Part shown: positions 1 to 55,827 of the stretch, piece by piece
How positions within the stretch are numbered: position 1 is the first letter of the stretch
Layout of the letters: each line of letters opens with the position of its first letter
Assembly (NCBI GenBank): GCA_019744975.1
Contig: JAIETP010000008.1
Span: 5,549-69,548 of the forward strand
Reading direction: 5' to 3'
DNA from: Burkholderiales bacterium
GTDB lineage: Bacteria; Pseudomonadota; Gammaproteobacteria; Burkholderiales; SG8-41
DNA: 64,000 nt
Notes under the pieces: model-generated
Databases searched by the model: none
What the model saw: the letters and a program-made list of their open reading frames with translations, nothing else
What the model was told of the DNA's origin: nothing
Translations under genes and position numbers: made by a program

Positions 1-139
1 TCAGCCGCATCGCCATCTCCGCCACCGAGGCCTTGGAACTCAGGCCAACCAGCGCGCCGATCCCTGAGTAGGAGGGCAGCATGCGGTGGCGGGCGTAGTA
101 GTCCTGCAGTTTTGCCAGATATTGAGTGTCGTCGGCCAT
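1..139 (-). CDS. lexA: LexA-family repressor, N-terminal wHTH (partial, runs off window start)
   Basis: Manual translation MADDTQYLAKLQDYYARHRMLPSYSGIGALVGLSSKASVAEMAMRL matches the LexA DNA-binding pattern PS..EI...G.SS.S.V; a palindromic box lies directly upstream. Confidence 0.75.
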   Translation of the reverse strand, partial: MADDTQYLAKLQDYYARHRMLPSYSGIGALVGLSSKASVAEMAMRL

Positions 140-150
140 GGAGTTACGAT

Positions 151-168
151 ACCGAACGATCGTTCGGT
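151..168. promoter_or_regulatory. Perfect palindrome ACCGAACGATCGTTCGGT, GAAC-N4-GTTC type SOS box
   Basis: 18-bp perfect palindrome 11 bp upstream of the lexA ATG. Confidence 0.75.
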
Positions 169-184
169 GGTCAATGTTGACCTC

Positions 185-248
185 GGTGATAAGTAACTGC
201 TGATTAGGTGATTAGGTGATTAGGTGATCGGTGATTGGTGATTCGGTG
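185..248. repeat. Short 7-8 bp tandem repeat (GGTGATT[A/C/G])n
   Basis: tgattagg tgattagg tgattagg tgatcgg tgattgg tgattcgg. Confidence 0.8.
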
Positions 249-292
249 CGGAAGGCGGGATGCGCGTTGCTTCTCCCGCCCTACGGGTTCTG

Positions 293-321
293 ACTTGAGG
301 TCACAAATTGTGACTTCAAGT
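293..321. repeat. Inverted repeat ACTTGAGGTCACAA-A-TTGTGACTTCAAGT
   Basis: 14-bp arms with 1 mismatch; a related palindrome AACTGGTCGCAATTTGCGACCGGTT lies at ~355-379. Confidence 0.75.
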
Positions 322-394
322 TTATAAGCTATTGATTTAATTATTAAAAATTATAACTGGTCGCAATTTGCGACCGGTTCGCCGCATATCCAGA

Positions 395-412
395 TATACC
401 TAATACGGTATA
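395..412. promoter_or_regulatory. Putative TA operator TATACC-N6-GGTATA
   Basis: Palindrome immediately upstream of the toxin ATG at 416. Confidence 0.5.
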
Positions 413-415
413 ATC

Positions 416-787
416 ATGACCAAGAAACCGGCAGTGCTGGAAAGACCTTTGCATTGGGTGGGCTCGGCAAAAAAGGATTTGCTGGAATTTCCGGCGCTGG
501 TAATTGATCGGCTCGGATATGGGCTGGGCGTGGTGCAGGCAGGCGGTATGCCGCCTGCCGCCAAGGCCTGGAAAGGCGAGGGGCCGGGCGTGTTTGAGTT
601 GGTTGAGGATTGGCGGGGTGATACCTGGCGCGTGGTGTTTGTGGTGCGCTTCGAAAAGGCGATTTATGTGTTGCATTGTTTTCAGAAAAAATCACCTTCC
701 GGGATGCGTACGGCGCAGCAGGATGTCGGATTGATTCACGAGCGCCTGAAAACGGCGCGTGCAGATTATGAGGTGCGTTATGGCTAA
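416..787 (+). CDS. Type II TA toxin, RelE/HigB (Gp49-like) family
   Basis: RPLHWVGSAKKDL...GVFELVED...IYVLHCFQKKS motif; precedes and overlaps an HTH gene. Confidence 0.9.
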   Translation: MTKKPAVLERPLHWVGSAKKDLLEFPALVIDRLGYGLGVVQAGGMPPAAKAWKGEGPGVFELVEDWRGDTWRVVFVVRFEKAIYVLHCFQKKSPSGMRTAQQDVGLIHERLKTARADYEVRYG

Positions 788-1160
788 AAAGGTCAAAGGC
801 AAGGCAAAGCAGTCCGCAGCAAAAGCGCGGCCCGGCAAACGCGGGGCGGTGGATGTTGGCAGCGGCAACGTGTTTGCCGATCTGGGCTACGCTGATTCAG
901 ATGAACGCCGGTTGCGCGTGCAGCTTGCCATGCAGTTGAATGAACTGATTGCCGCGCGTCCGCTTACGCAGGCGCAGGCCGCGGCGCTTTTCGGGATTCC
1001 GCAGCCGCATGTATCGGAGTTACGCAATTACAAGCTCACACGTTTTTCGTCGGAACGTTTGCTGCGTTTTCTGACGCAGCTTGATCGGGATGTACAGATA
1101 TTGATTCGCCCCAAGGCGCGTGGGAGTGCGGCTGGGTTGGTTTCGGTGTTGGTGGCGTGA
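780..1160 (+). CDS. HigA-type XRE/HTH_37 antitoxin
   Basis: GSGNVFADLG...LTQAQAAALFGIPQPHVSEL...FSSERLLRFL; ATG at 780 overlaps the toxin end. Confidence 0.9.
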   Translation: MAKKVKGKAKQSAAKARPGKRGAVDVGSGNVFADLGYADSDERRLRVQLAMQLNELIAARPLTQAQAAALFGIPQPHVSELRNYKLTRFSSERLLRFLTQLDRDVQILIRPKARGSAAGLVSVLVA

Positions 1161-8852: not shown

Positions 8853-8872
8853 ATAAGTATTTGATTTTATTG
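8853..8872. promoter_or_regulatory. IHF-consensus-like 20-mer ATAAGTATTTGATTTTATTG
   Basis: Reverse complement contains AATCAAATACTTA (WATCAANNNNTTR); identical copies at 48466 and 55771. Confidence 0.6.
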
Positions 8873-8901
8873 TTATTTTAATGGGTCATCCTTGATGCAG
8901 G

Positions 8902-39820: not shown

Positions 39821-40636
39821 TCAGCCGGTTTTCAGCGCACACAGCGCGGCTGCAGTGCGCGTGGCAACTCCGAGCCGCCTGAATATGCTTTCAATCCGGG
39901 TCTTGACGGTGGACAGACTGATGCCCAGTGTTTTTGCGATCTCGTCATTGGTCTTGCCAGCGGCGATTTCGTGCAGCACTTCGGCTTCGCGCCGGCTGAG
40001 ACCAAAACGCGTCATCAGAGCAAACACCGCGGCTACGCCGTAGATGTATTCAGCGTCGACGGAACGATTGGTTTCTGCGCGCAGGCTGGCGAGTTCGGAG
40101 CGCGCGGCAGCGTTTTGATAGGCCTGAATAAAGTGCGGCCGCAGGCTGGTCAGAAGGTCACGTTCGGTTTCGCTGAAATCGCGATGTTTCCGGCTGACTG
40201 CGAAAAAAATCAGCGAGTCTCCGATACGCTGGCCGATGGTTAACTGGAAGCGCACGTCGGCCAGCGGACGGTAGAAATCCGCGTATAGCCCCGAGCTGCG
40301 CCAGCGTTGCTGGCTGACAAAGTCGCTGGTTTTGAGCGCGCTTGTACCGCTGCCGTTCACCTTGAGGATGTGCTGCACTGAGGGATGCTGCTCGACATGA
40401 TCGAAGAATGCCAGCCGCAGAACCGGGAAATCCGTGATCGGGTCGCTCAAGGCGCTCAAGGAATCGCCGTTCACCAGATTGATTTCGTTGTGACAGGTCA
40501 ATTCGCCGCCAAACTCGCGTTTAACCATCGACAGCGAGCGTTCGCGGAAGTCATCAAGGCTCTCGGCTGCATAAATGCCGAGCAGGATTTCCGAAAGCGG
40601 GTGCAGGAACTGGGAGGCGGTGGCCGGATGATTCAT
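39821..40636 (-). CDS. LuxR-type HTH transcriptional regulator with GAF-like N-terminus
   Basis: LSRREAEVLHEIAAGKTNDEIAKTLGISLSTVKTRIESIFRRLGV. Confidence 0.9.
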   Translation of the reverse strand: MNHPATASQFLHPLSEILLGIYAAESLDDFRERSLSMVKREFGGELTCHNEINLVNGDSLSALSDPITDFPVLRLAFFDHVEQHPSVQHILKVNGSGTSALKTSDFVSQQRWRSSGLYADFYRPLADVRFQLTIGQRIGDSLIFFAVSRKHRDFSETERDLLTSLRPHFIQAYQNAAARSELASLRAETNRSVDAEYIYGVAAVFALMTRFGLSRREAEVLHEIAAGKTNDEIAKTLGISLSTVKTRIESIFRRLGVATRTAAALCALKTG

Positions 40637-40860: not shown

Positions 40861-43800
40861 ATGCCGGCGTCATCAACTCGAAAAACAAGATCAAACCTTT
40901 CCAGATTCAAAGTCCATCCGCTTGCTGAGCGGGGGGCGTTTCCTTGGGGTTCATTTCGGCGCTTTGTGCTACGGCCGATTGCGTTTGCGGTCATGTTGTC
41001 CTGGACGGCCGGTGCAATGGCCAACCCGACCGGCGCCCAAGTCGCAGCCGGCGCGGCCAGCTTCCAGACCTCTGGCAAAACCCTGACGGTGACCAATACT
41101 CCGGGGACTATTCTCAACTGGTCATCGTTTTCCATCGCTGCCGGTGAGGTTACACGGTTTCAGCAGCAGTCTGCGCTGAGCGCGGTACTGAACCGCGTCA
41201 CCGGCGCCAATCCCTCCAGCATTCTCGGCACGCTGTCATCCAACGGCCGCGTATTCCTGGTCAATCCGCACGGCATCGTCTTCGGCCAGGGCTCGGTGAT
41301 CAACACCGCGGGTTTTGTCGCTTCGACGCTCAATATCAGCGATGCCGATTTCCTCGCCGGCCGGATGAAATTCGAGGGCGGTGGCCACGGCGTGTTGCGC
41401 AACGAAGGCGCGATCCAGGCCGCGGGGGATATTTTCCTGGTCGGCCCGCGGATTGAAAACGCCGGACTGATCAAAAGCGACAACGGCAGCGTGCTGCTCG
41501 CCGCCGGGCAGGCCATCACCATCACCAGTCCGGACGCGCATGGTGTGCAGTTCGCGCTGCAGGCGCCGACCGACAGCGCGCTGAACCTCGGCGTGATTGA
41601 GGCGAAAAATGCGGCAGGAATGTTTGCGGGGACTCTGAAACATTCAGGCGACATCCGCGCCACCAGCGCCAGTGTCGATGCCAGTGGCCGCGTGGTTCTT
41701 GCCGCGCAGAAGGATGCGATCCTCGACGGCAATGCCACCATCAATGTCGACAACATCGCGGGCAAGGGTGGTGCGGTGCAGATCACCGGTGAACGCGTCG
41801 GGCTGTTTGACAATGCGACCGTGACCGCGCGTGGTGTCGCGGGTGGCGGCACGATTCTGGTGGGCGGCGATTATCAGGGCGCGAATCCGGCCGTGCGTAA
41901 TGCAGCCCGCACTTTTGTCGGGTCCGGCGCCGTGCTTGATGCATCCGCTACTTCCAGCGGCGACGGCGGCAAGATCATCGTGTGGGCAGATGATGTCACC
42001 CGTTATTTCGGCAGCGCGGCAGTGCGCGGCGGCGCGCAGGGCGGTGACGGCGGGCTGGTCGAGGTGTCGGGCAAGAATGCGCTGGTTTTTGAAGGCCGCG
42101 TCGGGCTGGAGGCGGTCAATGGCAGGTCCGGTACGTTGTTGCTCGATCCTCTGAATATCACGGTGCAGGCGGGGGCCGGTACGTTGGATGGCGAATTGTC
42201 CGCGCCGGGCGATCCGCTGCTGGCTTTTGCTGAGCCTGACAACGTGACCACTGGCACGCTGAGCGTGGCGTCGCTGCAGGCCTTCACCACCGGTACCGTC
42301 GAGCTGCAGGCGAACAACAACATCACTTTTGATGCGGCGGTCACCATGCAGTCCGGCGTGTCGCTGAAAGCAGCGGCGATGAACAATGTCAACGTCAATG
42401 CCAACATCACCACTTCGGGCGGCGGCGTGCTGCGACTCGAAGCCGATACCGATCAATCGGGTGCCGGTGTGGTGAATCTGGGTACGGCCACCATCAACGC
42501 GCCCCTGATCATCGGTGATACCGGCAAGGAGTTTTCGGGGAATGCCAACATCACCGGCAATTTCAGCTTCGGCGGCAATACGCAGGTGTTCGGCCAGCTC
42601 AACCTCAGCACCGGTTCGATGACCGTTGCGACCGGGCAGACCCTGAGCCTGACCGGCGGCATGAACTGGGCGACCAGTGCGGGTATCAACGGGCCCGGCA
42701 CGGTCACCCTGCCATCAGGCCAGACACTGACACTCGCGGGAAACGCCGACCGTCCGCTGGTCAACGCGACCTTCAACAACAACGGCACGGTGGTCAGCCA
42801 GGACGCCGGCGCCAACCTGCTGATCAACGACGGCTCGGTGTTCAACAACGCCGGGGTGTATCGCATTGTGTCGGGCGCCTCGATCACCCGCAATTCGGGT
42901 GCCGGCACATTCAACAATACTGGCGAGCTGGAGATCGGCGGCGCGATCACCGGTACGGTCAGCAATGTGACCTTCACCAACACCGGCGGCACACTCGACA
43001 GTGGCACCGGCACACTGGACCTCGGTGCCGGCGGCAGCCATTCCGGCGCGCTGACCATACAGGGCAACCACGTCAGGCTGAATTCCGGTACGCACACTTT
43101 TGCCGACAGCACGACGGTGGCAGGCCGGCTCAACGTGGTCGGCGGTACGGCCAGCTTTGGTACGGTGACAGTCAACGGCCTGGTGAACTACACCAGCGGA
43201 GGCATCAATGTCACTGCGGGTGACACGCTGACGCTGAATGGCGGTATGAGCTGGGCGACCGCCTCGGGCATCAGCGGGCCCGGCACGATCACACTGCCCA
43301 CGGGGCAGACGCTGACGCTGGTGTCGAACATCGACCGCCCGCTGGTCAACGCGACCTTCAACAACAACGGCACGGTGGTCAGCCAGGACGCAGGCTCCAA
43401 CCTGTTGATCAATGACAGCTCGGTGTTCAACAACGCCGGGGTGTATCGATTCCAAACGGGCGGTGCCATCACCCGCAATTCGGGTGCCGGCACATTCAAC
43501 AACACCGGCGAAGTGGAGGGTGTTGCCGGCAACAACCAGGTCAACAACGTGACCTTCACCAATGCCGGCGGCACGCTCGACAGCGGTCCCGGCACACTTG
43601 AGCTGAATTCCGGCGGCAGCCATTCCGGTGCGCTGACGATGCAGGGCAACAACGTCAGGCTGAATGGCGGTACCCACACGTTTGCAGACAGCACGACCAT
43701 CGCGGGCATACTGAATGTGACTGGCGGCGGCACCGCCAGCTTCGGCACGGTGGCTGCCAACGGGCTGGTGAATTACACCGGTGGCGGATTCAATGTCACC

Positions 43801-46800
43801 GCCGGCGACACGCTGACACTGAATGCCGGCATGAACTGGTCCGAGGGTTTCAGCATTGCCGGTCCGGGCACGGTTGTGCTGCCGGCAGGGCAGACGCTGG
43901 CCACGGCCGGTGGCGGCGGCAGCCGTACTCTGGTCAACGTCACCTTCAACAACAACGGCACCTTCGACAGCGGCAGCAACGGCAGTGTGCTGGTCAATGA
44001 CAACTCGGTGTTCAACAACGCCGGGCTGTACCGCTTCCTGAACGCAGGCAATTTCATCAGCCGCAATTCGGGCGCAGGCACCTTCAACAACACCGGCACC
44101 ATCCAGGTCGGCGGTGCCTTTCCGAACAACATCAACAATGTGACCTTCACCAACACCGGTGGCATCCTGGACAGCGGCACCGGAACGCTGAACCTGAATG
44201 CCGGCGGCAGCCACTCCGGTGCGCTGACGATGCAGGGCAGCAATGTGTTCCTCGCCGGCGGCACCCACGATTTTGCCGACGGCGCGACCGTGGCCGGGCG
44301 GCTCAATGTGGATGGCGGCACGGCGAGTTTCGGCACGGTGACCACCAACGGACTGGTGACCTACGACGGCGTCGGCTTCAATGTCACCGCGGCCGACACG
44401 CTGACTTTGAACGGCGGCATGAACTGGACCGCCGGCGATATCGGCGGCCCCGGCACCATCGTGCTGCCTGCCGGGCAGACGCTGGCGATGAGTAATGCCG
44501 GCAACCGCGCCATGGTCAATGTGGTGTTCAACAACAACGGCACGGTGACCAGCCAGATCGGGGCGCAACTGCTGATCAACGACGGGTCGGTGTTCAACAA
44601 TGCGGGTGTGTACCGCTTTCTTGACAGCAGCGTGATCAACCGTACTTCCGGCACTGGCGCCTTCAACAACACCGGCGAAATCGAAGTGGTCGGCGCCTTC
44701 AACGGTTTTGTCAGCGGTGTGGCCCTCACCAACACCAGCGGCACACTCGACAGCGGTACCGGCATGTTGAGGCTGGACGCCAGCGGCACACATTCAGGCG
44801 CGCTGACGCTGCAGGGTACCAACGTGCAGTTGAACGCCGGCACGCACACTTTCGCCGACGGCACCACGGTGTCGGGCACGCTGAACGTGCAGGGCAGTGC
44901 CACCGCCAGCTTCGGCACCGTGACCATGAACGGGCTGGTGAATTACAGCAACGGTGGTTTCAATGTCACTGCCGGCGATACGCTGACGCTCAACGCCGGC
45001 ATGAACTGGACAGGTGCCGGCATCAGCGGGCCGGGTGCGATCACGCTGCCGGCGGGGCAGACGCTGGCGATCAGCGCGGGTGGTGGCAGTGCCCTGGTCA
45101 ACGTTACTTTCAACAACAATGGCACGGTGACCAGCCAGATCAACGGCGGCAGCGTGCTGATCAATGATGGTTCGGTGTTCAACAACGCCGGGGTGTTCCG
45201 CTTCCTGACCGGTGACGCCATCAACCGCACTTCGGGCACCGGTGTCTTCAACAACACCGGAGAAATTGAAGTGGGTGGTGCCTTCACCGCCTCGATGGCC
45301 AATGTGACGTTTACCAATACCGCAGGGACACTCGACAGCGGCACCGGCACGCTGAATCTGAATGCCGGCGGCAGTCATTCGGGAGCACTGACGATGCAGG
45401 GTACTGGAGTGCAGATGAGTGGCGGCACACATGATTTTGCCGATACCACCACCGTGGCCGGGCAGCTCAATGTGTCCGCAGGCGGCATCGCCAACTTCGG
45501 CACGGTGACCACCAACGGGCTGGTGAGCTACAGCAGCGGCGGTTCCGGATTCAATGTGACCGCGGGCGACACGCTGACGCTCAATGCCGGCATGAACTGG
45601 GCTGGCGGCGGCAATGTCAGCGGGCCGGGCACGGTCACGCTGCCGGCGGGGCAGACGCTGGCGATGGCCGGCGGTGGCGGCAACCGCGCGCTGGTCAATG
45701 TGACTTTCAACAACAACGGCACGGTGACCAGCCAGCTTGGTACGCAAGGCCTGCTGGTGAATGACGGTACGGTTTTCAACAACGCCGGGATGTATCGTTT
45801 TCTGAGTGGCGATTTCATCACCCGCAACTCGGGTACGGGCACTTTCAACAACACTGGCGAGATTGAAGTGGGCGGCGCGTTCACCGGCACCATGAACAAC
45901 GTGGTTTTCAGCAATACCAGCGCCACGCTGGATGCCGGTACCGGCATCTTCAATCTCGATGGCGGCGGCAGCTACACCGGTACGATGACCTTGCAGGGCG
46001 CCAACGTACGTCTGAATGGCGGCACCCACAATATTGCCGACGGCGTGACGGTGGCGGGACAGCTCAATGTGACTAGCGGCGCGACCGCCAACTTTGGCAC
46101 GGTGATCACCAACGGGCTGGTGAATTACGCGGCTACCGGTCTCAACGTCACCGCAGGCGACACGCTGACACTGAATGGCGGCATGAACTGGACGAGCGGC
46201 AACGTCAGTGGGCCAGGTACGGTCACGTTGCCTGCCGGGCAGACGCTGGCAATGACCAACACCAGTACCCATGCACTGGTCAACGCCACCTTCAACAACA
46301 ATGGCACCGTGACCAGCCAGATCGGTGGCCAGAACCTGCTGATCAACGATGGTTCCGTCTTCAACAACGCCGGGGTGTACCGCTTCCTTGGCAGCGATGC
46401 CATCGCCCGTACGTCCGGTGCCGGCACCTTCAACAACACCGGCACCATGCAGGTGGTCGGCGCTTTCACCGGCACCGTCAACGATGTGGCGTTCAGCAAC
46501 ACCGGCGGCACACTGGATAGCGGCGCCGGCACGCTGAATCTGACTCCCGGCGGCAATCATTCCGGCGCGTTGACGATGCAGGGTGGCAATGTGCGGCTGG
46601 CTGCCGGTACGCACAACTTTGCGGATGGCACGACGGTGGCCGGGCAACTCAATGTGGCCGGCGGCACCGCAAGCTTCGGTACGGTGACGACGAATGGTCT
46701 GGTGAATTACACCGCGGGCGGCTTGAATATAACCGCGGGCGACACGCTGACGCTCAATGGCGGCATGAACTGGGTGACCGGCGCGAACATTTTCGGCCCC

Positions 46801-48420
46801 GGCGCGATTACCCTGCCGACGGGACAGACCATGGCCATGACCAATGCCGGCGGGAACGCCCTGGTCAACGCCATCTTCAACAACAATGGCACGGTGACCA
46901 GTCAGTTCAACGCCGGCCAGAACTTTTTGCTGAACGATGGTACGGTCTTCAACAATGCCGGCGTGTATCGCTTCCTCGATACCAACACCATTGTCCGCAC
47001 TTCGGGGGTGGGCACTTTCAACAACAGCGGCACGCTGCAGGTGAACGGTGCTTTCACCGGCACCATGAACAATGTGGTGTTCAGCAACAACGGCGGCACC
47101 CTCGACAGCGGCGCCGGTACGCTTAACATCAATGTCGGCGGCGCACATTCCGGCACGATGACTGTCCAGGGCGCTGATGTCCGTTTCAACGCCGGTACAC
47201 ACATTTTCACGACAGCGAGTTTTGCCGGTAGCGGGGCCATCAATATTCAAGGTGCGGGTTTTACGCTGAGCAATACCAACTGGAATCGCCCGTTCAACCT
47301 GACTTCTGGCACGGTAACCATTCCGGCGGCAACCACCACCACGGTTCCCGCCGGCGCCAATATCGCCATCAATCATGCGGTCGGTGGCACCGGCACAATG
47401 CTGAACCAGGGTACCGTGGATTTGAGCGGGGGTTCGCTGGCGGGAACGCTGAACAATCAGGGCGCGCTGAATCTGACGTCGGGCAATACGACGGTGGGCG
47501 GCGGCATCTCGATGGTTTCGGGCGCGATCAACGTGGCGACCGCGCGTACGCTGAATGTCGCCGGCACCGGTGTTGACTGGCAGGGCGGCACATTGTCCGG
47601 CGCCGGCAGCTACAACCTGACCGGCGGCCTGGCGATCACCGGCGGCGGCGCGCGGGTGCTCAACGGTCCGACGCTGAATCTCGGCGCGACCACGCTGGGT
47701 GGCTCGCTGAACGTGCAATCCGGCGCACTCAACTTCGGCGGCATCGCCACCATCGGCCCGGCGGCGACGCTGGAGTTGACCGGCGGCACGGTGACCGGTG
47801 CGCTGGCCGTCGATGTGCAGGGACTGCTCAAGATGAATGGTGGTGTGCTCAACGCGGCCTCGGTGGGTCTGGTGCCCGGCGCAACCCTCAGCGGCAGCGG
47901 CGGCACGATCAATGCGCCGGTCGTCAACGGCGGCACTGTCGCGGTCGGCGCTTCGCCGGGCACGCTGGTGGTCAACGGCAATTATTCGCAGACACCGACC
48001 GGCGTGTTGAATGTCGAGCTAGGCGGCACCACGCAGGGCGTCAACTACGATCTGTTGCAGGTCAACGGCACGGCGAGCCTGGGCGGCACGATGAACGTAT
48101 CGATGTTCGGCGGCTTCACCGGAGCGGTAGGCAATGTCTTTGATGTCATCACCTACACCAGTCGTACCGGAGATTTCACCACCATCAATTTCCCCCCCGG
48201 TTTTGGCATGAGCGCCGCGCCCAACGCCACTTTCTACCAACTGGCGCTGGCCTCGGTGCCGGCAGTTGCCGCTGGTCCGGGCGGTGCGACCGAGGCCGCG
48301 ATACTCAAGCTGCTGGCTGGCGAGACCAAGATCCTCAACGACAAATTCCTCGCGACGGTTGATGCCGGCAAACAACCGGAAGAGGAAGAAAAGAAAGGCG
48401 CGGTGCTCGAATGCATCTGA
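40861..48420 (+). CDS. TpsA / filamentous haemagglutinin-family exoprotein (2519 aa)
   Basis: Signal peptide; TPS domain (LNWSSFSI, LNRVTG, NGRVFLVNPHGIVFG); DGGLVEVSG, GTLLLDP; G/N/T-rich beta-helix repeats. Confidence 0.93.
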   Translation: MPASSTRKTRSNLSRFKVHPLAERGAFPWGSFRRFVLRPIAFAVMLSWTAGAMANPTGAQVAAGAASFQTSGKTLTVTNTPGTILNWSSFSIAAGEVTRFQQQSALSAVLNRVTGANPSSILGTLSSNGRVFLVNPHGIVFGQGSVINTAGFVASTLNISDADFLAGRMKFEGGGHGVLRNEGAIQAAGDIFLVGPRIENAGLIKSDNGSVLLAAGQAITITSPDAHGVQFALQAPTDSALNLGVIEAKNAAGMFAGTLKHSGDIRATSASVDASGRVVLAAQKDAILDGNATINVDNIAGKGGAVQITGERVGLFDNATVTARGVAGGGTILVGGDYQGANPAVRNAARTFVGSGAVLDASATSSGDGGKIIVWADDVTRYFGSAAVRGGAQGGDGGLVEVSGKNALVFEGRVGLEAVNGRSGTLLLDPLNITVQAGAGTLDGELSAPGDPLLAFAEPDNVTTGTLSVASLQAFTTGTVELQANNNITFDAAVTMQSGVSLKAAAMNNVNVNANITTSGGGVLRLEADTDQSGAGVVNLGTATINAPLIIGDTGKEFSGNANITGNFSFGGNTQVFGQLNLSTGSMTVATGQTLSLTGGMNWATSAGINGPGTVTLPSGQTLTLAGNADRPLVNATFNNNGTVVSQDAGANLLINDGSVFNNAGVYRIVSGASITRNSGAGTFNNTGELEIGGAITGTVSNVTFTNTGGTLDSGTGTLDLGAGGSHSGALTIQGNHVRLNSGTHTFADSTTVAGRLNVVGGTASFGTVTVNGLVNYTSGGINVTAGDTLTLNGGMSWATASGISGPGTITLPTGQTLTLVSNIDRPLVNATFNNNGTVVSQDAGSNLLINDSSVFNNAGVYRFQTGGAITRNSGAGTFNNTGEVEGVAGNNQVNNVTFTNAGGTLDSGPGTLELNSGGSHSGALTMQGNNVRLNGGTHTFADSTTIAGILNVTGGGTASFGTVAANGLVNYTGGGFNVTAGDTLTLNAGMNWSEGFSIAGPGTVVLPAGQTLATAGGGGSRTLVNVTFNNNGTFDSGSNGSVLVNDNSVFNNAGLYRFLNAGNFISRNSGAGTFNNTGTIQVGGAFPNNINNVTFTNTGGILDSGTGTLNLNAGGSHSGALTMQGSNVFLAGGTHDFADGATVAGRLNVDGGTASFGTVTTNGLVTYDGVGFNVTAADTLTLNGGMNWTAGDIGGPGTIVLPAGQTLAMSNAGNRAMVNVVFNNNGTVTSQIGAQLLINDGSVFNNAGVYRFLDSSVINRTSGTGAFNNTGEIEVVGAFNGFVSGVALTNTSGTLDSGTGMLRLDASGTHSGALTLQGTNVQLNAGTHTFADGTTVSGTLNVQGSATASFGTVTMNGLVNYSNGGFNVTAGDTLTLNAGMNWTGAGISGPGAITLPAGQTLAISAGGGSALVNVTFNNNGTVTSQINGGSVLINDGSVFNNAGVFRFLTGDAINRTSGTGVFNNTGEIEVGGAFTASMANVTFTNTAGTLDSGTGTLNLNAGGSHSGALTMQGTGVQMSGGTHDFADTTTVAGQLNVSAGGIANFGTVTTNGLVSYSSGGSGFNVTAGDTLTLNAGMNWAGGGNVSGPGTVTLPAGQTLAMAGGGGNRALVNVTFNNNGTVTSQLGTQGLLVNDGTVFNNAGMYRFLSGDFITRNSGTGTFNNTGEIEVGGAFTGTMNNVVFSNTSATLDAGTGIFNLDGGGSYTGTMTLQGANVRLNGGTHNIADGVTVAGQLNVTSGATANFGTVITNGLVNYAATGLNVTAGDTLTLNGGMNWTSGNVSGPGTVTLPAGQTLAMTNTSTHALVNATFNNNGTVTSQIGGQNLLINDGSVFNNAGVYRFLGSDAIARTSGAGTFNNTGTMQVVGAFTGTVNDVAFSNTGGTLDSGAGTLNLTPGGNHSGALTMQGGNVRLAAGTHNFADGTTVAGQLNVAGGTASFGTVTTNGLVNYTAGGLNITAGDTLTLNGGMNWVTGANIFGPGAITLPTGQTMAMTNAGGNALVNAIFNNNGTVTSQFNAGQNFLLNDGTVFNNAGVYRFLDTNTIVRTSGVGTFNNSGTLQVNGAFTGTMNNVVFSNNGGTLDSGAGTLNINVGGAHSGTMTVQGADVRFNAGTHIFTTASFAGSGAINIQGAGFTLSNTNWNRPFNLTSGTVTIPAATTTTVPAGANIAINHAVGGTGTMLNQGTVDLSGGSLAGTLNNQGALNLTSGNTTVGGGISMVSGAINVATARTLNVAGTGVDWQGGTLSGAGSYNLTGGLAITGGGARVLNGPTLNLGATTLGGSLNVQSGALNFGGIATIGPAATLELTGGTVTGALAVDVQGLLKMNGGVLNAASVGLVPGATLSGSGGTINAPVVNGGTVAVGASPGTLVVNGNYSQTPTGVLNVELGGTTQGVNYDLLQVNGTASLGGTMNVSMFGGFTGAVGNVFDVITYTSRTGDFTTINFPPGFGMSAAPNATFYQLALASVPAVAAGPGGATEAAILKLLAGETKILNDKFLATVDAGKQPEEEEKKGAVLECI
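42600..47250 (+). repeat. Eight tandem ~585-bp (~195-aa) intragenic repeats
   Basis: M(N/S)W anchor at 42661, 43246, 43831, 44419, 45001, 45592, 46183, 46765. Confidence 0.92.
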
Positions 48421-51400
48421 CTCCGCGCAACCCGGCTGTTGTTGCCCTGCATTCAGGCGATTATCATAAGTATTTGATTTTATTGATAAAATTAATATTT
48501 TTCACAATCGCCATATATGGCCTGTTGCTAAGCGCGCCGGCGCAGGCCCAGGTCGCGCGCGTGCTGGATACCAAAGGCACGGCGTTGGTCGAACGCAGCG
48601 GCCAGATTCCGCGCCTGCTCGGCGCCGGTGAACGGCTTGATGAGCGTGACGTGATCAACGTCGCGCGTGACTCCTGGGCGATCCTCGAATTCAACGACCA
48701 GACCCGCATCACGCTGCGGCCGAACACCGTGTTCCGCCTCGACAGTTACAAGGCCGATGCGCCGGAAGCGATGCTGCTGGGACTGGTGAAGGGTGGACTG
48801 CGCGTGGTGACCGGTTTGCTCGGCAAGCGCAATCCCTCCGGCGTCAAAGTACAGACCGCGGTGGCGACCATCGGTATCCGCGGTACCGAGTTTGATGCGC
48901 GTTTGTGCGAAGCGGATTGTGCAGTTGAAGAACGCACGCGGCCTGCGCCGCGGCCGCTGGTGCTGCCGGTGGCGCGGGTGGTGGAGATGAATGGCGTGGT
49001 CGGTGCCGGGCGCGCCGGCGAATCAGTGCGCCTGCTGGTGCCGGGTGCGATGCTTAATGAAGGGGATGCGGTGGCCGTTGGCCGTGGCGGCAGCGCGCTG
49101 CTGGTGTTTCGTGACGGCGCGCGTGTGGCGCTGGCGCAGAACAGCCGCTTCGCGATCAACCGTTTCCGTTACAGCGAAGCGCAGCCGCGCGAAGGCTCGG
49201 CGTTTCTGACCTTGTATGACGGTTATGCACTGGTCAGCACCGGGCAACTTGCCAAGATCAGCCCTGATGCCTTTTTGTTTCGCAGCGCGCTGGGGGTGGC
49301 ACGGTTTTTGGGAAGTACCGGTGGTTTTTCCGGTTGTTTGGGTGCTGCCTGTGTCTCGGGCAGTGTATCGGTAAGCTCCGATGGCGTCACGGTGTCTGGC
49401 GGAGCGAGTGCCGGTGGGGCCAGCGCCACAGGCGAAACCACTGTAGACAGCGGTGGTGTCAGCGGATCGGGCTCAGTGACTGTAGGCAACAACACGGCAT
49501 CCGGATCGACCGGCACGGCCAAGCTCAATCTGCCCGGCGGCCAGCAGGTGCTGTCGAATGCCGAGCAGCTTGCGAATGAAGTGGTCGACGGCGTGCGTAA
49601 TATCACTGCCGTGGTGGTGTCGACGGTTGGTAACCAGAATCAGAACTTCCAGCAACAGGTGGGTAATGTTGTAACCCAGACGCAGAACACCTTCCAAAAC
49701 ACCACGCAGGTGGTCACCAATGCAGCAGTGGATCAGGCGGTCAATGCGCTGAATACGGCGACGGCACCCATCGTTGCCGAGATGACCGCGCTGCTGACGC
49801 AGATGCGCAACAACCCGCCGCAGACCGAGGCCGCCGCCCAGCAACTGTCCACGCGTGTGACGCAGTTATCCCAGTTGCTGACCACGGCATTGAATCAGGC
49901 GAGGACTGCGGCCGGGGCGGTTGCGCAGAATGATGCTTTCCGCGCGAGTTATGGTCTGGCAATGGCGGAATATCTGACCTTCAATTCGGTATTGGGGGCT
50001 GGAATGGCAGGGACTGGCGGCACTGGCGGAAGCCACTTTGCACAGCAGGCCATGTACGACTCAGAAATCAACAGGATTCTTGCCGATCCCTATGCGCTGG
50101 GCAGTATCGGCTTGGTAGGTCTCTCTGCTGGAGATTTGATCGAAGCACGTAATGCAGGTATTTACGGTGGCTCGGGTGTCATTCAGCGCGAGATCGCTTC
50201 GCACCTTGCAAGCCAGGGCAGTGCGGCGGCCAAGTCTTTTTTCAACGAAGCTCAATCAACTGCAACCACGTTCCAGCAGCGCGCAGCCGAAGAGGCGGCG
50301 CGCGTGGCTGCTGAGGCCGAGAGAATAGCCGCTGCCGCAAAAGTCGAGGCAGAGGCCAAGTTTGCTGCCCAACAGAAGATTGTCGAAGAGAAGCTCGCCC
50401 GGATCAAAGCCTTGGCTGTGTCTGCGGCGGACCGAGCCTCGTCAGCCATGAAGGAGTTGCACGCAGTTTTGGAGCGGATAAAAGGTCTTCCTGCTGACGG
50501 CGCTGCCGCAGAAACTGTTTTGGCGCAGGCGCGCAAGGACCTGACGCGAATTTCCGCAGAACTTAACGCGGTTGCAGCCTTGACTGCTGATCCGCAGTTG
50601 AGAAGCCAATTGCGACAACTTTCAGTACTCGCGACGGCGGTTATCTTGGCGCCAGGTCTGACTGGCGCGGTTGTAGCAGCGCTTGCCGTCGATGCGATAG
50701 TCGTGGCGGCACTGACGACTCTTGCCACAACCCCGGCAATGCTGGTCGCATCAGCCATGCTTTTGGAGTCGGTCGGTATGCAAGAGGCGGCTGCCGTATT
50801 ACGCGGTGCTGCCGGGGATTTTCCTGATACGGCTCAGACAGTCCTGGTGGTGCGATCAATGCTGCTCAGCCTTCCTGCGACCGCAGCCTCGGCAGCAAGG
50901 CGGACAGTCGAGAACGTATTGGCGCGGTTGGAGCAGGATGCCACCCGGTTGGCAGCACAATCATCAAGGGCTGCCGCCGATGCTAAGTTCGCCAGAGCCA
51001 AAACCGATGTACAAACTACCGCCGAGATCGCTAGGATTATTACAACATTCACTGCCAATAAGGATGTTCGGGAGGCACAGGAAAGCCTGGAAAGACTCAG
51101 GGCCGAGCTCAGCAAATTGGGTGAGCAGGGGCGTATTTTACTGGGTCAGCTTGACCGCCTTTCTTTAACTGGCGGCGATGCGGTGGCGATAATGCTTGCT
51201 TTTCTCGACGGCATGAGAAAACAGTTTTCAGCAGATCGGGGCGGCGATGCCACCTCCAATTCAGCGCAAACATCAAATTCAGAAAAGACTGCTACAGACC
51301 CGATCGTTGTTGTCCATGATGGTGCAGTAGAGATCATTGGCCGCGGCCGTGTGCTGAAAGGTGAAATGCTGGCTGCGACCGGTGGTCCGATGCGTATGGC

Positions 51401-51710
51401 CGGCCTCGCCACTGTGCCGGATGTCAAGGTGGATCCCGATCTGTTCAAAAGCGCTGATAAAGCGGTTGATGAGGGCCTCTACGTCTGGGTCCGTGACGGC
51501 GCGGTTCGTGTGACCAAGGATGCGGAGTCGGTGGATGTTGCAGCCGGCAATGCCGCGGTGGTGACGGATCATGTGCGCCTGCTCGATGTTGTGCCGAACT
51601 TCATGCGCTTTGATGGCACGCCGCGTCCGCTGCCCAGCGGCAGCGGCTCGGTGATCGATACCTTCAGGGCGGGTGACGGGGCGATACTCAATATGTGCAG
51701 TGTGCGTTGA
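48411..51710 (+). CDS. FecR-domain protein with nested domains and a large central insert
   Basis: Signal peptide; FNDQTRITLRPNT, ATIGIRGTEF; second copy FRDGARVALAQNS; C-terminal VHDGAVEI and GLYVWVRDGAV halves. Confidence 0.85.
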   Translation: MHLTPRNPAVVALHSGDYHKYLILLIKLIFFTIAIYGLLLSAPAQAQVARVLDTKGTALVERSGQIPRLLGAGERLDERDVINVARDSWAILEFNDQTRITLRPNTVFRLDSYKADAPEAMLLGLVKGGLRVVTGLLGKRNPSGVKVQTAVATIGIRGTEFDARLCEADCAVEERTRPAPRPLVLPVARVVEMNGVVGAGRAGESVRLLVPGAMLNEGDAVAVGRGGSALLVFRDGARVALAQNSRFAINRFRYSEAQPREGSAFLTLYDGYALVSTGQLAKISPDAFLFRSALGVARFLGSTGGFSGCLGAACVSGSVSVSSDGVTVSGGASAGGASATGETTVDSGGVSGSGSVTVGNNTASGSTGTAKLNLPGGQQVLSNAEQLANEVVDGVRNITAVVVSTVGNQNQNFQQQVGNVVTQTQNTFQNTTQVVTNAAVDQAVNALNTATAPIVAEMTALLTQMRNNPPQTEAAAQQLSTRVTQLSQLLTTALNQARTAAGAVAQNDAFRASYGLAMAEYLTFNSVLGAGMAGTGGTGGSHFAQQAMYDSEINRILADPYALGSIGLVGLSAGDLIEARNAGIYGGSGVIQREIASHLASQGSAAAKSFFNEAQSTATTFQQRAAEEAARVAAEAERIAAAAKVEAEAKFAAQQKIVEEKLARIKALAVSAADRASSAMKELHAVLERIKGLPADGAAAETVLAQARKDLTRISAELNAVAALTADPQLRSQLRQLSVLATAVILAPGLTGAVVAALAVDAIVVAALTTLATTPAMLVASAMLLESVGMQEAAAVLRGAAGDFPDTAQTVLVVRSMLLSLPATAASAARRTVENVLARLEQDATRLAAQSSRAAADAKFARAKTDVQTTAEIARIITTFTANKDVREAQESLERLRAELSKLGEQGRILLGQLDRLSLTGGDAVAIMLAFLDGMRKQFSADRGGDATSNSAQTSNSEKTATDPIVVVHDGAVEIIGRGRVLKGEMLAATGGPMRMAGLATVPDVKVDPDLFKSADKAVDEGLYVWVRDGAVRVTKDAESVDVAAGNAAVVTDHVRLLDVVPNFMRFDGTPRPLPSGSGSVIDTFRAGDGAILNMCSVR

Positions 51711-51795
51711 GTAAAAATATCAATAAAAACAAATACTTAATGATGACTCTCGATCTGGCTTCAGCGGCTGCACCAGTTCCCTGTCGATCTGCTAG

Positions 51796-51830: not shown

Positions 51831-52124
51831 ATGATCCGCGAAGCCCCCGCTGTCAAAGTGCGGCAAAACCTCGGCGAATTGCTGAACGAGGTGCAATACA
51901 AGCGCGACTCGGTGGTGATACTCAAGGATGGCAAGCCGGTAGCGGCGCTGATCGATATCGGACTGTTCGAGCGTATCCGCGCGATGGAGACGCGGTTCAC
52001 CGAAATCACCAACAAGATACAGGCTGCTTTTGCCGGCTTGAGCGATGATGAACTGGAAACACTCATTGACGAGGCGGTGGAATACGCGCGCCGTCCGCCA
52101 CGCAAGGCACGCAAATCCAAGTGA
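51831..52124 (+). CDS. Phd/YefM-family antitoxin
   Basis: VRQNLGELLNEV....VVILKDGKPVAALI. Confidence 0.9.
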   Translation: MIREAPAVKVRQNLGELLNEVQYKRDSVVILKDGKPVAALIDIGLFERIRAMETRFTEITNKIQAAFAGLSDDELETLIDEAVEYARRPPRKARKSK

Positions 52125-52636
52125 GGATCGTACTCGACACCAACGTCCTGCTCTCGGGGCTGACCCGGGCGGATCGACCGCCGGGGATTATCCTGTCAGC
52201 CTGGCACGAGGGGCAATTCGATCTGGTGATATCGGAGCCGATGATCGAGGAGATCCTGCGCGTTTTTCATTATCCCAAAGTGCGCAGGGTGCTCGCGAAA
52301 GCGGCCGTGACCTACGAGGATCCTCGCGAAATCACGGAAATGCTGAGATTGAGGGCGATCTTGGTGGACGTTACTGGCGTGGTGCTGCAGACGGTACCGC
52401 AAGACCCGAAGGACGCACTGGTGCTCGCAACGCTGATCGCAGCCGAAGCGGAATGGCTGGTCACCGGCGACAAGCGGGATCTGCTGTCGCTGGGGCTGCG
52501 CAATGTCATCACGGCGCGGGATTTCCTGTCGCGGCTCGAGGCGCTGCGCCTGCCGCCCCTGGCGGAGCAGCCGCGGGCGGCCTATCGGGTGGCGCGGGAA
52601 CGGCGCAAGCGTCCGGCAGCGGTCGCGCAAGCCTGA
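52121..52636 (+). CDS. PIN-family putative toxin
   Basis: RIVLDTNVLLSG, DPKD, LVTGDKRDLL; GTGA overlap. Confidence 0.9.
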   Translation: MRIVLDTNVLLSGLTRADRPPGIILSAWHEGQFDLVISEPMIEEILRVFHYPKVRRVLAKAAVTYEDPREITEMLRLRAILVDVTGVVLQTVPQDPKDALVLATLIAAEAEWLVTGDKRDLLSLGLRNVITARDFLSRLEALRLPPLAEQPRAAYRVARERRKRPAAVAQA

Positions 52637-54192
52637 GGCGGTTTGCCGCCGGTCTGGCCGGTGTGCTGCTACTGGCGATACTTTCGTTGGTCGCGGATGA
52701 CGCATCCGCGCAAACTGCTGCCGAGCCGCGCTTCGCCGTCAGCGGCTACAAGGTGGAAGGTGACAACCCGCTGTCGGTAGAGGCAACCCAAGCATTACTC
52801 GCGCCGTACACCGGCGAGATCGTCAGCATCGACCGCCTGCAGGCTGCCGCCGCTGCGCTGGAGCAGACCCTCAAGGACCGCGGTTACGGTTTTCTGCGTG
52901 TGGTGATTCCACCGCAGGATGCCAAGGGCGTGATCACCCTGCGTGTGCTGGCGTTCAAGCTGAACACCATCAACGTCAGCGGCAACCAGCATTTTGATAC
53001 CGATAACATCCGCCGCAGCCTGCCGGCGCTGCAAAGCGGCGCAACACCCAATCTGCTGGAAATCGCGCGCGCGCAGGCCCTGGCCAATGACCACGCCTCC
53101 AAACAACTCTCGGTGACCATCCAGCAGGGCAAGGCGACGGATACCGTCGATGCCGCGGTCAAGGTCGAAGACAGCAAGCCACTGCAGTTTTTCGCCAGCC
53201 TCGACAACACGGGCAACAAGCAAAGCGGCCATACGCGGCTGGGTGTCGGTGTGCAGCACAGCAATCTGTTCAACCGCGATCATGCGCTGACGGCGACCTG
53301 GACCACCTCGCCCGACGGCCATGTCGATGATCTGTCGCAGTATGGTTTTTATTACCGCGCGCCGATCTACGCATGGAACGGCGCCCTGTCGGCGTATTAC
53401 ACGCGGTCTGACACCGATTCCGGCGTGGTGGCGAATTTTTTCAATGTCAGCGGCAGCGGTGAATTTTATGGAATACGCTGGACGCACCGCCTGCTGCCTT
53501 TTGGCAGTTACAGCCATGCCGCCGAGGTCGGCCTCGAAAACCGTTTTTTCGGCAATGACGTGACGTTCAGCGGCACCCCCATCGGCACCGATGTGCGCAG
53601 CCGGCCGCTGCTGCTGCGCTACAGCGGGCGGCTCGATGGCGCGGCGTATGGCGTGCGCGGCAGCCTGGAATTCGCGCGCAACCTCTCCGGCGGTGCCAAC
53701 AACACGGATATTGAATACGCCGCGAATCGCGCAGGTGCGACCGCGGACTGGCAGGCCTGGCGTTACTCGGTGGAGGGTTCGCAGGCGCTGGGGGCCTGGG
53801 CCGTCACTGCAAAACTGCGCGGCCAGGCATCAAGCGACGCGCTGATTCCCGGTGAACAGTTCGGCTTGGGTGGCGCATCCGGCGTACGCGGGCTGGAAGA
53901 ACGTGAAGGAACCGGTGGCCAGGGCCTGCTCGGCAGTATCGAAGCAATGACGCCGCAGATTGTCGAAGGCCTGCGCCTGCTGGCCTTCGCTGATGCCGGC
54001 CAGGTGCGCAACCATCAGGCCGGGGCCGGTGTGCCGGAACGGGAAGGCGCCTCCGGTGCGGGCCTCGGCATGCGTTACCAGTGGCGGCGCAATTTCACCA
54101 TGGCGGTGGACTGGGCTTATGTGCTGAACGGTGCGGGTACGACCAACAAACACGACAACCGCGCGCACGCTACTTTGGCATTCCGCTACTAG
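52633..54192 (+). CDS. TpsB ShlB/FhaC/HecB-family outer-membrane transporter (start uncertain)
   Basis: Signal-like LRRFAAGLAGVLLL..ASAQ, POTRA (VVIPPQ), LDNTG, EQFGLGG..GVRG, terminal AFRY. Confidence 0.9.
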   Translation: MRRFAAGLAGVLLLAILSLVADDASAQTAAEPRFAVSGYKVEGDNPLSVEATQALLAPYTGEIVSIDRLQAAAAALEQTLKDRGYGFLRVVIPPQDAKGVITLRVLAFKLNTINVSGNQHFDTDNIRRSLPALQSGATPNLLEIARAQALANDHASKQLSVTIQQGKATDTVDAAVKVEDSKPLQFFASLDNTGNKQSGHTRLGVGVQHSNLFNRDHALTATWTTSPDGHVDDLSQYGFYYRAPIYAWNGALSAYYTRSDTDSGVVANFFNVSGSGEFYGIRWTHRLLPFGSYSHAAEVGLENRFFGNDVTFSGTPIGTDVRSRPLLLRYSGRLDGAAYGVRGSLEFARNLSGGANNTDIEYAANRAGATADWQAWRYSVEGSQALGAWAVTAKLRGQASSDALIPGEQFGLGGASGVRGLEEREGTGGQGLLGSIEAMTPQIVEGLRLLAFADAGQVRNHQAGAGVPEREGASGAGLGMRYQWRRNFTMAVDWAYVLNGAGTTNKHDNRAHATLAFRY

Positions 54193-54882: not shown

Positions 54883-55776
54883 ATGACTCCGCCCAGCGAA
54901 AAATACGACCTGCTGCTGACCGGCCGCATCCTGCCCGGCCACAAACGCGAGGTGGTGGCGGCTGCGCTGGCGAAACTGATGCGGATATCCGAAGCGCAGG
55001 CGCTGGAACTGCTGTCGGGGCGTGAGCAGACCGTCAAAGGCGGACTTGAACTGGCTGCAATGGGGCGTTATGTCCGGGCGCTGCGCGATGCGGGTGTGGA
55101 GACCCGTGCCGAGCTGGCGATCGCCGGTGCAATGATGGATTGCCCCTGCTGCCGCAAGCGTTCCCTGAAGCAGCGCGGTGCCGGCGAGTTGTGCCGGGTC
55201 TGCGGCTGGCGGGATGATGCGGAGCAGAACGAGTCCTGTCCTGATCAGGTGATTCCCGGACGCAACTGGGGGTACAGCCTCGCGCAGGCGCAAAAACAAT
55301 TCGCTGAACGGGGTTCGCTGGAGCCGCTGAGTTACGTGCCCAATGTGGTGCCGCTGAAAAAACGCATCACCGAAACGCTGGTGACTTTGCTGGTTCTGGC
55401 CTATTGCGGCTACAGCCTGTGGCGCGATGCATTGTTCATACCCAACATCAGCCGTAATCAATTCGGCAGCGTACCGAGCTTCACGCTGCACGGTGTTGAG
55501 GCTTGGCTGGTTTCAGGGGCGCTGCTTTTTGGCGTGCTGCAGTTTTTTGTGCCTGTCATCGACCATTACGACAAACGCAACAACGAGGCGCTCTCCGAAA
55601 AGATCGCACTGATCTGCCGGGTGCTGATGTTTGTGTTTCTGGCGCTGTGGCTGGGGGCGAATATTTATCTGGGATCAGGTGGCGACCTGCGGGTGCTTGC
55701 GGTGCTTGTAGTGGTGGGGGTGGTATTGCTGGTGATGGGCATCAAGGTCTACAAGAACAGAAATAAATATCAATAA
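54883..55776 (+). CDS. CPCC cysteine-rich membrane protein, paralogue 2, with extra N-terminal domain
   Basis: YDLLLTG..VAAALAKL.. N-domain; CPCC..RGAGELCRVCGW; DHYDKRNNE. Confidence 0.8.
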   Translation: MTPPSEKYDLLLTGRILPGHKREVVAAALAKLMRISEAQALELLSGREQTVKGGLELAAMGRYVRALRDAGVETRAELAIAGAMMDCPCCRKRSLKQRGAGELCRVCGWRDDAEQNESCPDQVIPGRNWGYSLAQAQKQFAERGSLEPLSYVPNVVPLKKRITETLVTLLVLAYCGYSLWRDALFIPNISRNQFGSVPSFTLHGVEAWLVSGALLFGVLQFFVPVIDHYDKRNNEALSEKIALICRVLMFVFLALWLGANIYLGSGGDLRVLAVLVVVGVVLLVMGIKVYKNRNKYQ

Positions 55777-55827
55777 AATCAAATACTTATGTAATTTTAT
55801 AGTGTCGCGCTTATTGTGGGAGGGAAG

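Follow-up and report, generated by a model that had tools for sequence, protein, structure and literature searches.

What does a FecR-type protein do between the two genes of a two-partner secretion (TPS, type Vb) system? The locus lies in a stretch of 64,000 nucleotides from Burkholderiales bacterium (NCBI GenBank assembly GCA_019744975.1, contig JAIETP010000008.1, positions 5,549 to 69,548 of the forward strand), which we call the window and number from its first letter. The operon runs on the + strand in the order tpsA, a gene for a protein with two FecR domains (hereafter the partner gene, and its product the partner), a Phd/YefM-PIN pair and tpsB (Table 1). An earlier note, made from the letters alone, had described the partner as a Russian doll of split FecR domains around an insert that looked foreign and resembled pore formers. 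We favour, with moderate confidence, a different overall explanation, in which the partner would be a third, periplasmic component of the type Vb system, with a nested fold, a tether to the fibre and an arm.

The FecR nest

The whole partner protein matched Pfam family PF04773 over two stretches (57.1 bits against a cutoff of 24, E = 2.5e-15), and both of them are broken, as expected for split FecR domains. The FecR domain 1 piece (aa 80-171; aa, amino acids) covers profile positions 1-88 of 97 (42.9 bits, E = 6.7e-11) and halts just after ...GIRGTEFDARLCEADC, where the last profile strands are absent. The FecR domain 2 piece (aa 220-278) covers positions 2-55 only (19.8 bits, E = 1.1e-3); because only these positions are contiguous, domain 2 alone scores below the cutoff. 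PF04773 was the only Pfam family found in the partner, searched whole up to E 0.1 and as six pieces up to E 10. In the latter search the last 139 residues (aa 961-1099) gave no match, and a PDB sequence search with the whole protein returned 0 matches at E <= 1.

Profile-profile comparison with hhalign, using profiles from short homologues (alignment A1), identified the missing halves. The halves that precede the cleavage-site motif, N1 and N2, proved to be duplicates of each other, matching with a probability of 100% (E = 6.6e-52, 119 columns). The C-terminal GLYVWV... segment (C1) matched the half that follows the second G-T motif (C2) with a probability of 98.2% (E = 3.2e-14, 49 columns). 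The order of the halves along the chain is therefore N1-N2-C2-C1. The consensus of the short homologues reads signal peptide, ...ATIGIRGTxFDARLCxxDC, ...ATIGIRGTGFDxxCxGxC, GLxxxVWxGxI..., PGLYVxVxxGxV... and a C-terminal Cys. The G158-T159 motif of domain 1 is kept in at least 90% of 84 aligned rows, and domain 2 reads G301-S302 in the window where at least 90% of the rows have G-T.

The AlphaFold2 model of the partner, built with an alignment of 84 sequences, had a mean predicted local distance difference test score (pLDDT) of 76.3, and confidence was high at aa 50-310, 440-620 and 960-1070. It superposed on the FecR fold of 6ovk_R (Z 15.3, root-mean-square deviation (rmsd) 2.8) and 4m0n (Z 15.1, rmsd 2.5), each over 135 residues spanning 77..1072, and on 6ovm_R (Z 15.5) and 4m0h_A (Z 14.6). 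The four chains align 134-140 residues that start at 64, 77 or 79 and end at 1071 or 1072, and the superposition was reproduced in two independent searches. Since the aligned domain has only about 135 residues but stretches over nearly 1000 residues of chain, it must be made of N1 and C1. In the model, these two halves form one FecR fold around about 850 intervening residues, so that the C-terminus closes the outer domain, as the earlier note had asked a predicted structure to show.

A short homologue (P0047, 437 aa) was modelled with an alignment of 105 sequences (mean pLDDT 90.8, predicted template modelling score 0.80). Its contiguous domain 2 (about 195-341) superposed on 4m0n (BDI_1681; Z 15.3, 134 residues, rmsd 2.3) and on 6ovk_R (PupR; Z 14.9). 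From this contiguous domain, and from pLDDT values of 83-96 at aa 961-1010 of the window model, we infer that N2 and C2 close the inner domain across the insert. In the covariation analysis, the top domain-2 pair joined the residue that follows G-T to the one two positions ahead of the DG turn, and the positional equivalent in N1 and C1 (E139-R369 of P0047) ranked 10 of all pairs. This support for the N1-C1 pairing is suggestive, as the 105 sequences are too shallow to sort N1-C1 from N1-C2 overall. Profile matches and model agree with the earlier note in placing domain 2 inside domain 1 and the insert inside domain 2, and we hold the nested FecR-in-FecR architecture with high confidence.

The nest is the ground plan of the whole family and not special to the window gene. 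A scan of 1.84 billion cluster representatives returned 7019 relatives at E <= 1e-3, of which 295 reached E <= 1e-30. Among 176 family proteins that were collected, 77 have 450-500 aa, and most members of the family have about 470 aa. This family of periplasmic proteins of about 470 aa is apparently undescribed, and our full-text literature search turned up no publication about a FecR-type partner with a gene between tpsA and tpsB. The nearest items were VreR, an anti-sigma factor that reportedly regulates a TPS system (PMC2729926), and the LysM-FecR/CHASE2 operon presented in PMC5192318.

One relative carries the nest in two pieces. In a Gallionellaceae metagenome-assembled genome (MAG; VIKH01000021.1, 5163-8830), the partner gene (P0132) is split exactly at the domain-2 G-T site. 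The first cistron encodes 281 aa with signal peptide, N1 and N2, and the second has its own Shine-Dalgarno sequence, ATG and signal peptide, followed by the insert, C2 and C1. This natural split fits halves that assemble in trans; as a gene arrangement, it demonstrates only tolerance of separate halves, and not that the protein cleaves itself. A further frameshift lies near the 3' end, in a DAPP(D/E)GYTET repeat.

P0132 was the only real split form among the candidate insert-only proteins. We rejected P0091, P0048 and P0084, which all end in the family C-terminus and are most simply 5'-truncated gene calls. The public gene call of the window protein itself (P0002, 1019 aa) starts at residue 81, without the signal peptide and the first strands, and this start is probably miscalled.

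Table 1. Window coordinates of the operon genes and of the parts of the partner gene
Feature	Position	Strand	Remarks
tpsA	40861..48420	+	2519-aa secreted fibre protein; TPS domain
Double-FecR partner gene (P0001)	48411..51710	+	1099 aa
Signal peptide, aa 1-46	48411..48548	+	h-region 20-46, AQA|QV; by hydropathy; helix 19-40 in model
N1, pre-cleavage-site half of FecR domain 1	48549..48920	+	ends GIRG158-T159-EFDARLC166EADC170; pLDDT 94-98
N2, pre-site half of FecR domain 2	48969..49319	+	ends ...GVARFLG301-S302-T303
Insert start: C309xxxxC314 loop and Gly/Ser/Thr-rich linker	49320..49553	+	composition G18 S15 V13
N/Q-rich helix (aa 383-423) and conserved helical bundle (aa 429-602)	49557..50216	+	from model
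Atypical codon-usage tract, aa 481-1000	49851..51410	+	low G+C at third codon positions, z -10.9
Ala-rich single helix, aa 605-691	50223..50483	+	87 residues; DSSP H605-691, pLDDT 74-89
Distal variable cassette, aa 681-960	50451..51290	+	lowest G+C at third codon positions (0.536); without counterpart in closest relatives
Hydrophobic helical hairpin, aa 736-785	50616..50765	+	Kyte-Doolittle above 1.6 over 50 residues; turn at about aa 755-763
C2, post-site half of FecR domain 2	51291..51440	+	PIVVVHDGAVEIIGRGRVLKGEML...; short-homologue alignment; pLDDT 83-96
C1, post-site half of FecR domain 1	51468..51626	+	GLYVWVRDGAVRV...; profile match to C2; closes outer domain
C-terminal tail with Cys1096	51627..51707	+	Cys codon 51696-51698; Cys conserved in at least 90% of 84 rows
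Phd/YefM antitoxin	51831-52124	+	Pfam
PIN toxin	52121-52636	+	Pfam; pair lodged between partner gene and tpsB
tpsB, outer-membrane transporter	52645..54192	+	start approximate; ShlB PF03865 E 5.7e-24; POTRA_2 PF08479 E 2.1e-12

The operon, its cysteines and a proposed periplasmic stopper

Both proteins that type Vb secretion requires are encoded in the operon. TpsA has an N-terminal TPS domain (aa 53-284; PF05860, E = 2.2e-27; TIGR01901, E = 6.8e-22), and TpsB has POTRA domains and a ShlB-type barrel behind a signal peptide that reads ...LLLAILSLVADDASA|QT. The partner gene begins within the end of tpsA, sharing 10 nt with it. In all ten related loci with upstream sequence, a TpsA-like open reading frame (ORF) terminates just 5' of the partner gene. 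At two loci (L012 and L013), tpsA, the partner gene and tpsB adjoin, overlapping or abutting, as in the window. In two genomes of the same genus (G095 and G086), whose TpsB proteins are 74% identical to that of the window over 511 aa, tpsB lies directly 3' of the partner gene and a TpsA-like ORF ends just 5' of it; the Phd/PIN pair had no match at the equivalent position in either genome. The Gallionellaceae MAG has an equal gene order, but an unrelated 196-aa ORF precedes tpsB. We consider it very probable that the product of the partner gene is a dedicated TPS partner.

Three further observations concern the genes around the partner. Directly 3' of tpsB are three tandem paralogous membrane proteins with Cys_rich_CPCC (PF14206; 54223-56877), found in the same order in G095 at 81-84% identity. 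The Pfam family RnlA_toxin_N (PF19417) scored 45.5 bits on TpsA against a cutoff of 24, on 34-residue stretches (aa ~1398-1431 and repeats). We take this match in the TpsA repeats of ~190 aa to be probably coincidental, produced by the repeats, rather than a sign of an RNase LS domain. The start codon of the partner gene (ATG, 48411) shares nucleotides with the codon of the single invariant Cys of TpsA (...GAA TGC ATT TGA).

The cysteines of the operon follow a restricted pattern. TpsA has one Cys in 2519 residues, the penultimate C2518 (codon 48412-48414), and all 10 C-terminal fragments of related TpsA proteins (310-500 aa) likewise have their sole Cys as the penultimate residue, which is the only invariant column across the 11 aligned tails. 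TpsB has 0 Cys. In the partner, a close pair of Cys follows directly on each G-T or G-S motif (166/170 and 309/314), and the unpaired Cys1096 lies four residues before the C-terminus. When Cys beyond residue 40 were counted, 133 of the 140 complete family members had an odd number.

We interpret this pattern as a possible means of fibre retention. After removal of the signal peptide, the chain most probably builds the first two thirds of domain 1 (N1), exits right after the G-T motif and a small CxxxC loop, builds domain 2 (N2...C2), and returns at the C-terminus to add the missing domain-1 strands (C1). The unpaired Cys1096 would form a disulfide with Cys2518 of TpsA, and the folded nest would serve as a stopper in the periplasm, so that the fibre stays tethered in or beneath the TpsB pore. 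The helical insert would be a variable arm that reaches away from the stopper, and its hydrophobic hairpin may anchor the assembly in the inner membrane. Judging from the cysteine pattern, we put the Cys1096-Cys2518 disulfide at about even chances; a membrane-anchoring role of the hairpin is doubtful. A complex prediction of the partner halves (N1+N2, aa 47-316; C2+C1, aa 958-1099) with the last 56 TpsA residues scored 0.03 against a mark of 0.32, with the fold of the TpsA tail itself uncertain, and was counted neither for nor against contact.

A precedent comes from Haemophilus influenzae, where, according to PMC5422565, the C-terminus of HMW1 and HxuA stays periplasmic and forms a disulfide-dependent globule that cannot pass TpsB. 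Because that C-terminus is periplasmic and disulfide-locked, and because of the Cys pattern found here, we propose a globule supplied in trans. Like the HMW1/HxuA anchor, it would hold a two-partner-secreted protein on the cell. Unlike that anchor, in which TpsA uses its own C-terminal domain and contains both Cys, the single Cys of TpsA here would be linked to a separate protein.

A periplasmic plug under an outer-membrane pore is also the role given to the retention module of RTX adhesins such as LapA of P. fluorescens in bioRxiv 10.1101/198937. N1 of P0047 resembles region I of the Marinomonas ice-binding adhesin (5ix9; Z 8.3, 75/76 residues, rmsd 2.2), and the NCBIfam model NF033682 (retention_LapA) matched aa 188-252 at 23.2 bits, below its curated cutoff of 50. 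The LapA-type systems differ in that they use type I secretion, have the module within the adhesin and release it by the LapG protease, whereas the system studied here is type V.

Anatomy, exchange and spread of the insert

The insert comprises 668 residues between G301-S302 and a VxVWDGxVEV strand (aa 965-976). After the opening Cys loop, pLDDT falls under 50 across most of aa 316-381 (316-339, 345-352, 356-358 and 363-381). At aa 441-620 it is 86-96, save one 10-residue block at 73 (aa 531-540). Beyond the 87-residue helix (aa 605-691), up to aa 941, the insert region is helical and of low confidence. Hydrophobic hairpins of 40-50 aa were found in 10 of the 61 long family rows and belong to three unrelated sequence types, of which the window type is the least hydrophobic. 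Their recurrence in three unrelated types suggests that they are probably functional. A two-helix membrane anchor with both ends periplasmic would fit, because both ends of the insert return to the periplasmic domain.

Comparison with insert-less homologues located the site of insertion. The distance from the G-T motif to the next strand is 16-74 residues in 37 short rows of an 84-row alignment (A2) and 69-1101 in the other 46, against the 668 of the window. We built a FastTree phylogeny of the core from 140 complete members with the insert left out; the tree is unrooted, so that gain and loss are indistinguishable in it. Thirty-nine long members form one clade (local support 92) beside four short ones, and the long/short label changes 4 times on the tree against about 40 in shuffles. 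The loop after the domain-2 G-T motif is thus an insertion hotspot in one clade.

Codon usage changes within the partner gene. We compared the G+C content at third codon positions (GC3) with the value expected from the genome's own codon usage for identical amino acids. For aa 481-1000 it was 0.562 against 0.755 expected, and a lower value occurred in only 1.3% of 753 500-codon windows of the genome. Within this tract, GC3 was 0.600 at aa 481-680 and 0.536 at aa 681-960. At aa 47-300 it was 0.744 against 0.751 expected, and the in-frame values of the flanking genes were 0.785 (tpsA) and 0.746 (tpsB). The low-GC3 tract is real and internal to the partner gene, and the GC3 drop noticed earlier is thereby upheld.

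The suggestion that the insert was acquired by cassette exchange held for its distal part. Up to about aa 680 the window protein is collinear with its closest relatives at 72-75% identity, and collinearity resumes at about aa 961 (80-88%). The segment between, aa 681-960, is unmatched in these relatives, which carry Lys/Glu-rich repeats and a beta-rich module there. Since aa 303-680 is shared at 72-75% identity, this part was inherited within the clade and is not a recent foreign piece. Recombination with DNA of poorer GC3 is the probable source of the distal cassette, and a replacement of this kind accounts for the core of the low-GC3 tract. Weighing against this explanation is the low GC3 (0.60) at aa 481-680, which relatives share and which a swap of aa 681-960 alone does not explain.

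The distal part is also the rarest. A search of 5.8 billion clusters with aa 690-960, in which only proteins of 604-1924 aa were compared, matched P0010 alone (51% identity over 64%). In BLAST among 174 family proteins, the module at 450-520 was found in 17 and that at 520-620 in 12, and neither the hairpin nor the region behind it recurred. With aa 421-960 as query, the insert was found in none of 300 other genomes of the order, including 6 of the window's own family, and an ESM Atlas search with aa 400-960 gave no usable match.

A case from another phylum was found in a Thermodesulfovibrionales MAG (JAGUWD010000018.1, 5200-8666), which encodes a 900-aa FecR protein with a truncated N1 and no C1. 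Its hairpin-bearing insert is 62% identical to that of the Gallionellaceae protein, a similarity that suggests transfer between phyla. The 900-aa protein is followed by a single-FecR protein of 257 aa, and the upstream TpsA again ends ...ILECK.

A 22-nt AT-rich motif forms an inverted repeat that flanks the partner gene. We rejected it as the border of a mobile unit, as the genome (3.69 Mb) has 245 copies at up to 4 mismatches, mostly at gene borders and in either orientation. In the window the copies with up to 3 mismatches (0 expected) are at 48467-48488 (+), 51718-51739 (-), 55768-55789 (-) and 8854-8875 (+). The first of them encodes the start of the h-region of the partner's signal peptide, and copies elsewhere likewise encode signal-peptide N-termini.

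Weighing the stopper against other roles

Several points weigh against a tethered stopper with a membrane-anchored arm. We infer both the contact between N2 and C2 across the insert and all contacts with TpsA or TpsB. The proposed disulfide draws on Cys counts and conservation only; the Cys count is even in 7 of the 140 family members, and a single Cys at the terminus might instead be used for some other linkage, for another partner or in processing. Domain 2 of the window carries G-S in place of G-T. The hairpin is present in only 10 of the 61 long rows, and that of the window is rich in Ala, Val and Thr, has a central Asp and reaches a pLDDT of only 50-65. It could be the buried core of a soluble bundle.

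The core might be a TPS partner while the insert has no job at all, being a tolerated, fast-evolving expansion at a permissive loop whose low-complexity linkers and coiled coils drift, duplicate and recombine. Insert lengths of 69-1101 residues within one clade, the duplicated modules of P0003, the large parts with pLDDT below 50 and low-complexity composition, the nearly unique distal cassette, and short members that work without an insert would all suit this. However, the bundle at aa 429-602 is confidently folded, and 12-17 family members retain it at 32-76% identity. Three sequence types have gained or kept hydrophobic hairpins of equal length, and the frame stays open over 2 kb. We regard a jobless insert as unlikely.

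A signalling device is the next alternative: the nest would sense the state of TpsA or TpsB, and self-cleavage at G-T/G-S together with the hairpin would relay it to the inner membrane or to a regulator, such as the GerE/LuxR-type gene encoded divergently upstream of tpsA (39821-40636). According to PMC12036975 and PMC9249621, FecR and FoxR undergo non-enzymatic self-cleavage at G|T through an N-O acyl shift, and the resulting fragments remain together. The partner has its G-T motif at the equivalent strand, kept for domain 1 as described above, and shares the fold that FecR/PupR anti-sigma factors have in the periplasm (134-140 residues aligned at Z 14.6-15.5, PF04773 above cutoff). The hairpin could span the inner membrane. 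In other respects the partner is unlike FecR and PupR. It has a cleavable signal peptide (AQA|QV) instead of an N-terminal membrane span, and no cytoplasmic anti-sigma domain was detected. No C-terminal STN-type subdomain was detected either, the structural alignments stopping at PupR/BDI_1681 residues 249-263, before the last subdomain. It has two domains, one nested, with the 668-residue insert at the cleavage-site loop, and its gene has tpsA and tpsB as operon neighbours in place of a TonB-dependent transducer and a sigma factor. Neither a sigma factor nor a CHASE2 gene adjoins the operon. In addition, most family members (about 470 aa) lack both the insert and a hydrophobic segment, with none seen beyond residue 60 in 97 of 103 short rows, and they could not reach the inner membrane in this way. 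Signalling therefore seems improbable.

The remaining alternative takes the insert for a pore-forming or translocon-like module whose hidden hairpin enters a target or host membrane, with the FecR halves as a mere carrier. Pore domains of the colicin A/E1/Ia type have a buried hydrophobic helical hairpin, and the window likewise has a hydrophobic hairpin of ~40-50 residues among long amphipathic helices. Such hairpins recur in three unrelated types, and the cassette is swapped among relatives, as toxin tips often are. The best pore-type folds among the 50 matches shown per search, with the whole 1099-residue model as query, were domain I of Cry5B and Cry4Ba (Z 8.4-8.5) and IpaD (7.9). However, QseG (Z 11.7) and periplasmic four-helix-bundle sensors (Z 8.8-10.2) scored above the Cry domains, designed bundles were also among the helical matches, and all helical matches stayed at Z < 12, where the tool's noise mark for helical models is ~13. 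The six protein pieces searched against Pfam up to E 10 listed no pore-former family, only weak chance-level helical matches, and the likeness to colicins or translocons is unsupported. Unlike a colicin, the insert is internal to a periplasmic protein with a Sec signal peptide and no TPS domain, and nothing suggests that it leaves the periplasm. A folded domain bounds the insert at either end, as befits an arm more than a toxin that is released, and no immunity-like small gene follows, the next genes being the Phd/PIN pair. A membrane anchor explains the hairpin at least as well as a pore, and we consider a pore former very improbable.

We return to the periplasmic stopper as the preferred explanation. 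It may extend to the whole family, although we regard the full version as rather unlikely: two interlocked, self-cleavable FecR domains bonded to the TpsA Cys would plug TpsB from below, and in the insert-bearing clade the arm and membrane hairpin would tie the plug to the inner membrane, coupling the fibre mechanically across the envelope. The halves cut at G|T, interlocked without a covalent bond, could then be a force- or signal-sensitive release latch.

The partner gene is a clean natural case of a domain-in-domain-in-domain insertion. The break that admits domain 2 and the one that admits the 668-residue insert each fall directly after a G-T or G-S motif (G158-T159 and G301-S302). With both insertions at the self-cutting loop and one relative split there, the FecR cleavage-site loop appears to be a natural permissive site. 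The gene also offers a concrete case of an internal cassette of a periplasmic protein exchanged by recombination. Two-partner secretion is usually described as a two-gene system; the periplasmic partner described here would be its third member, and it occurs in hundreds of environmental clusters. How fibres are retained on the cell is understood for only a few pathogens, and the Cys pattern suggests a covalent tether that can be tested.

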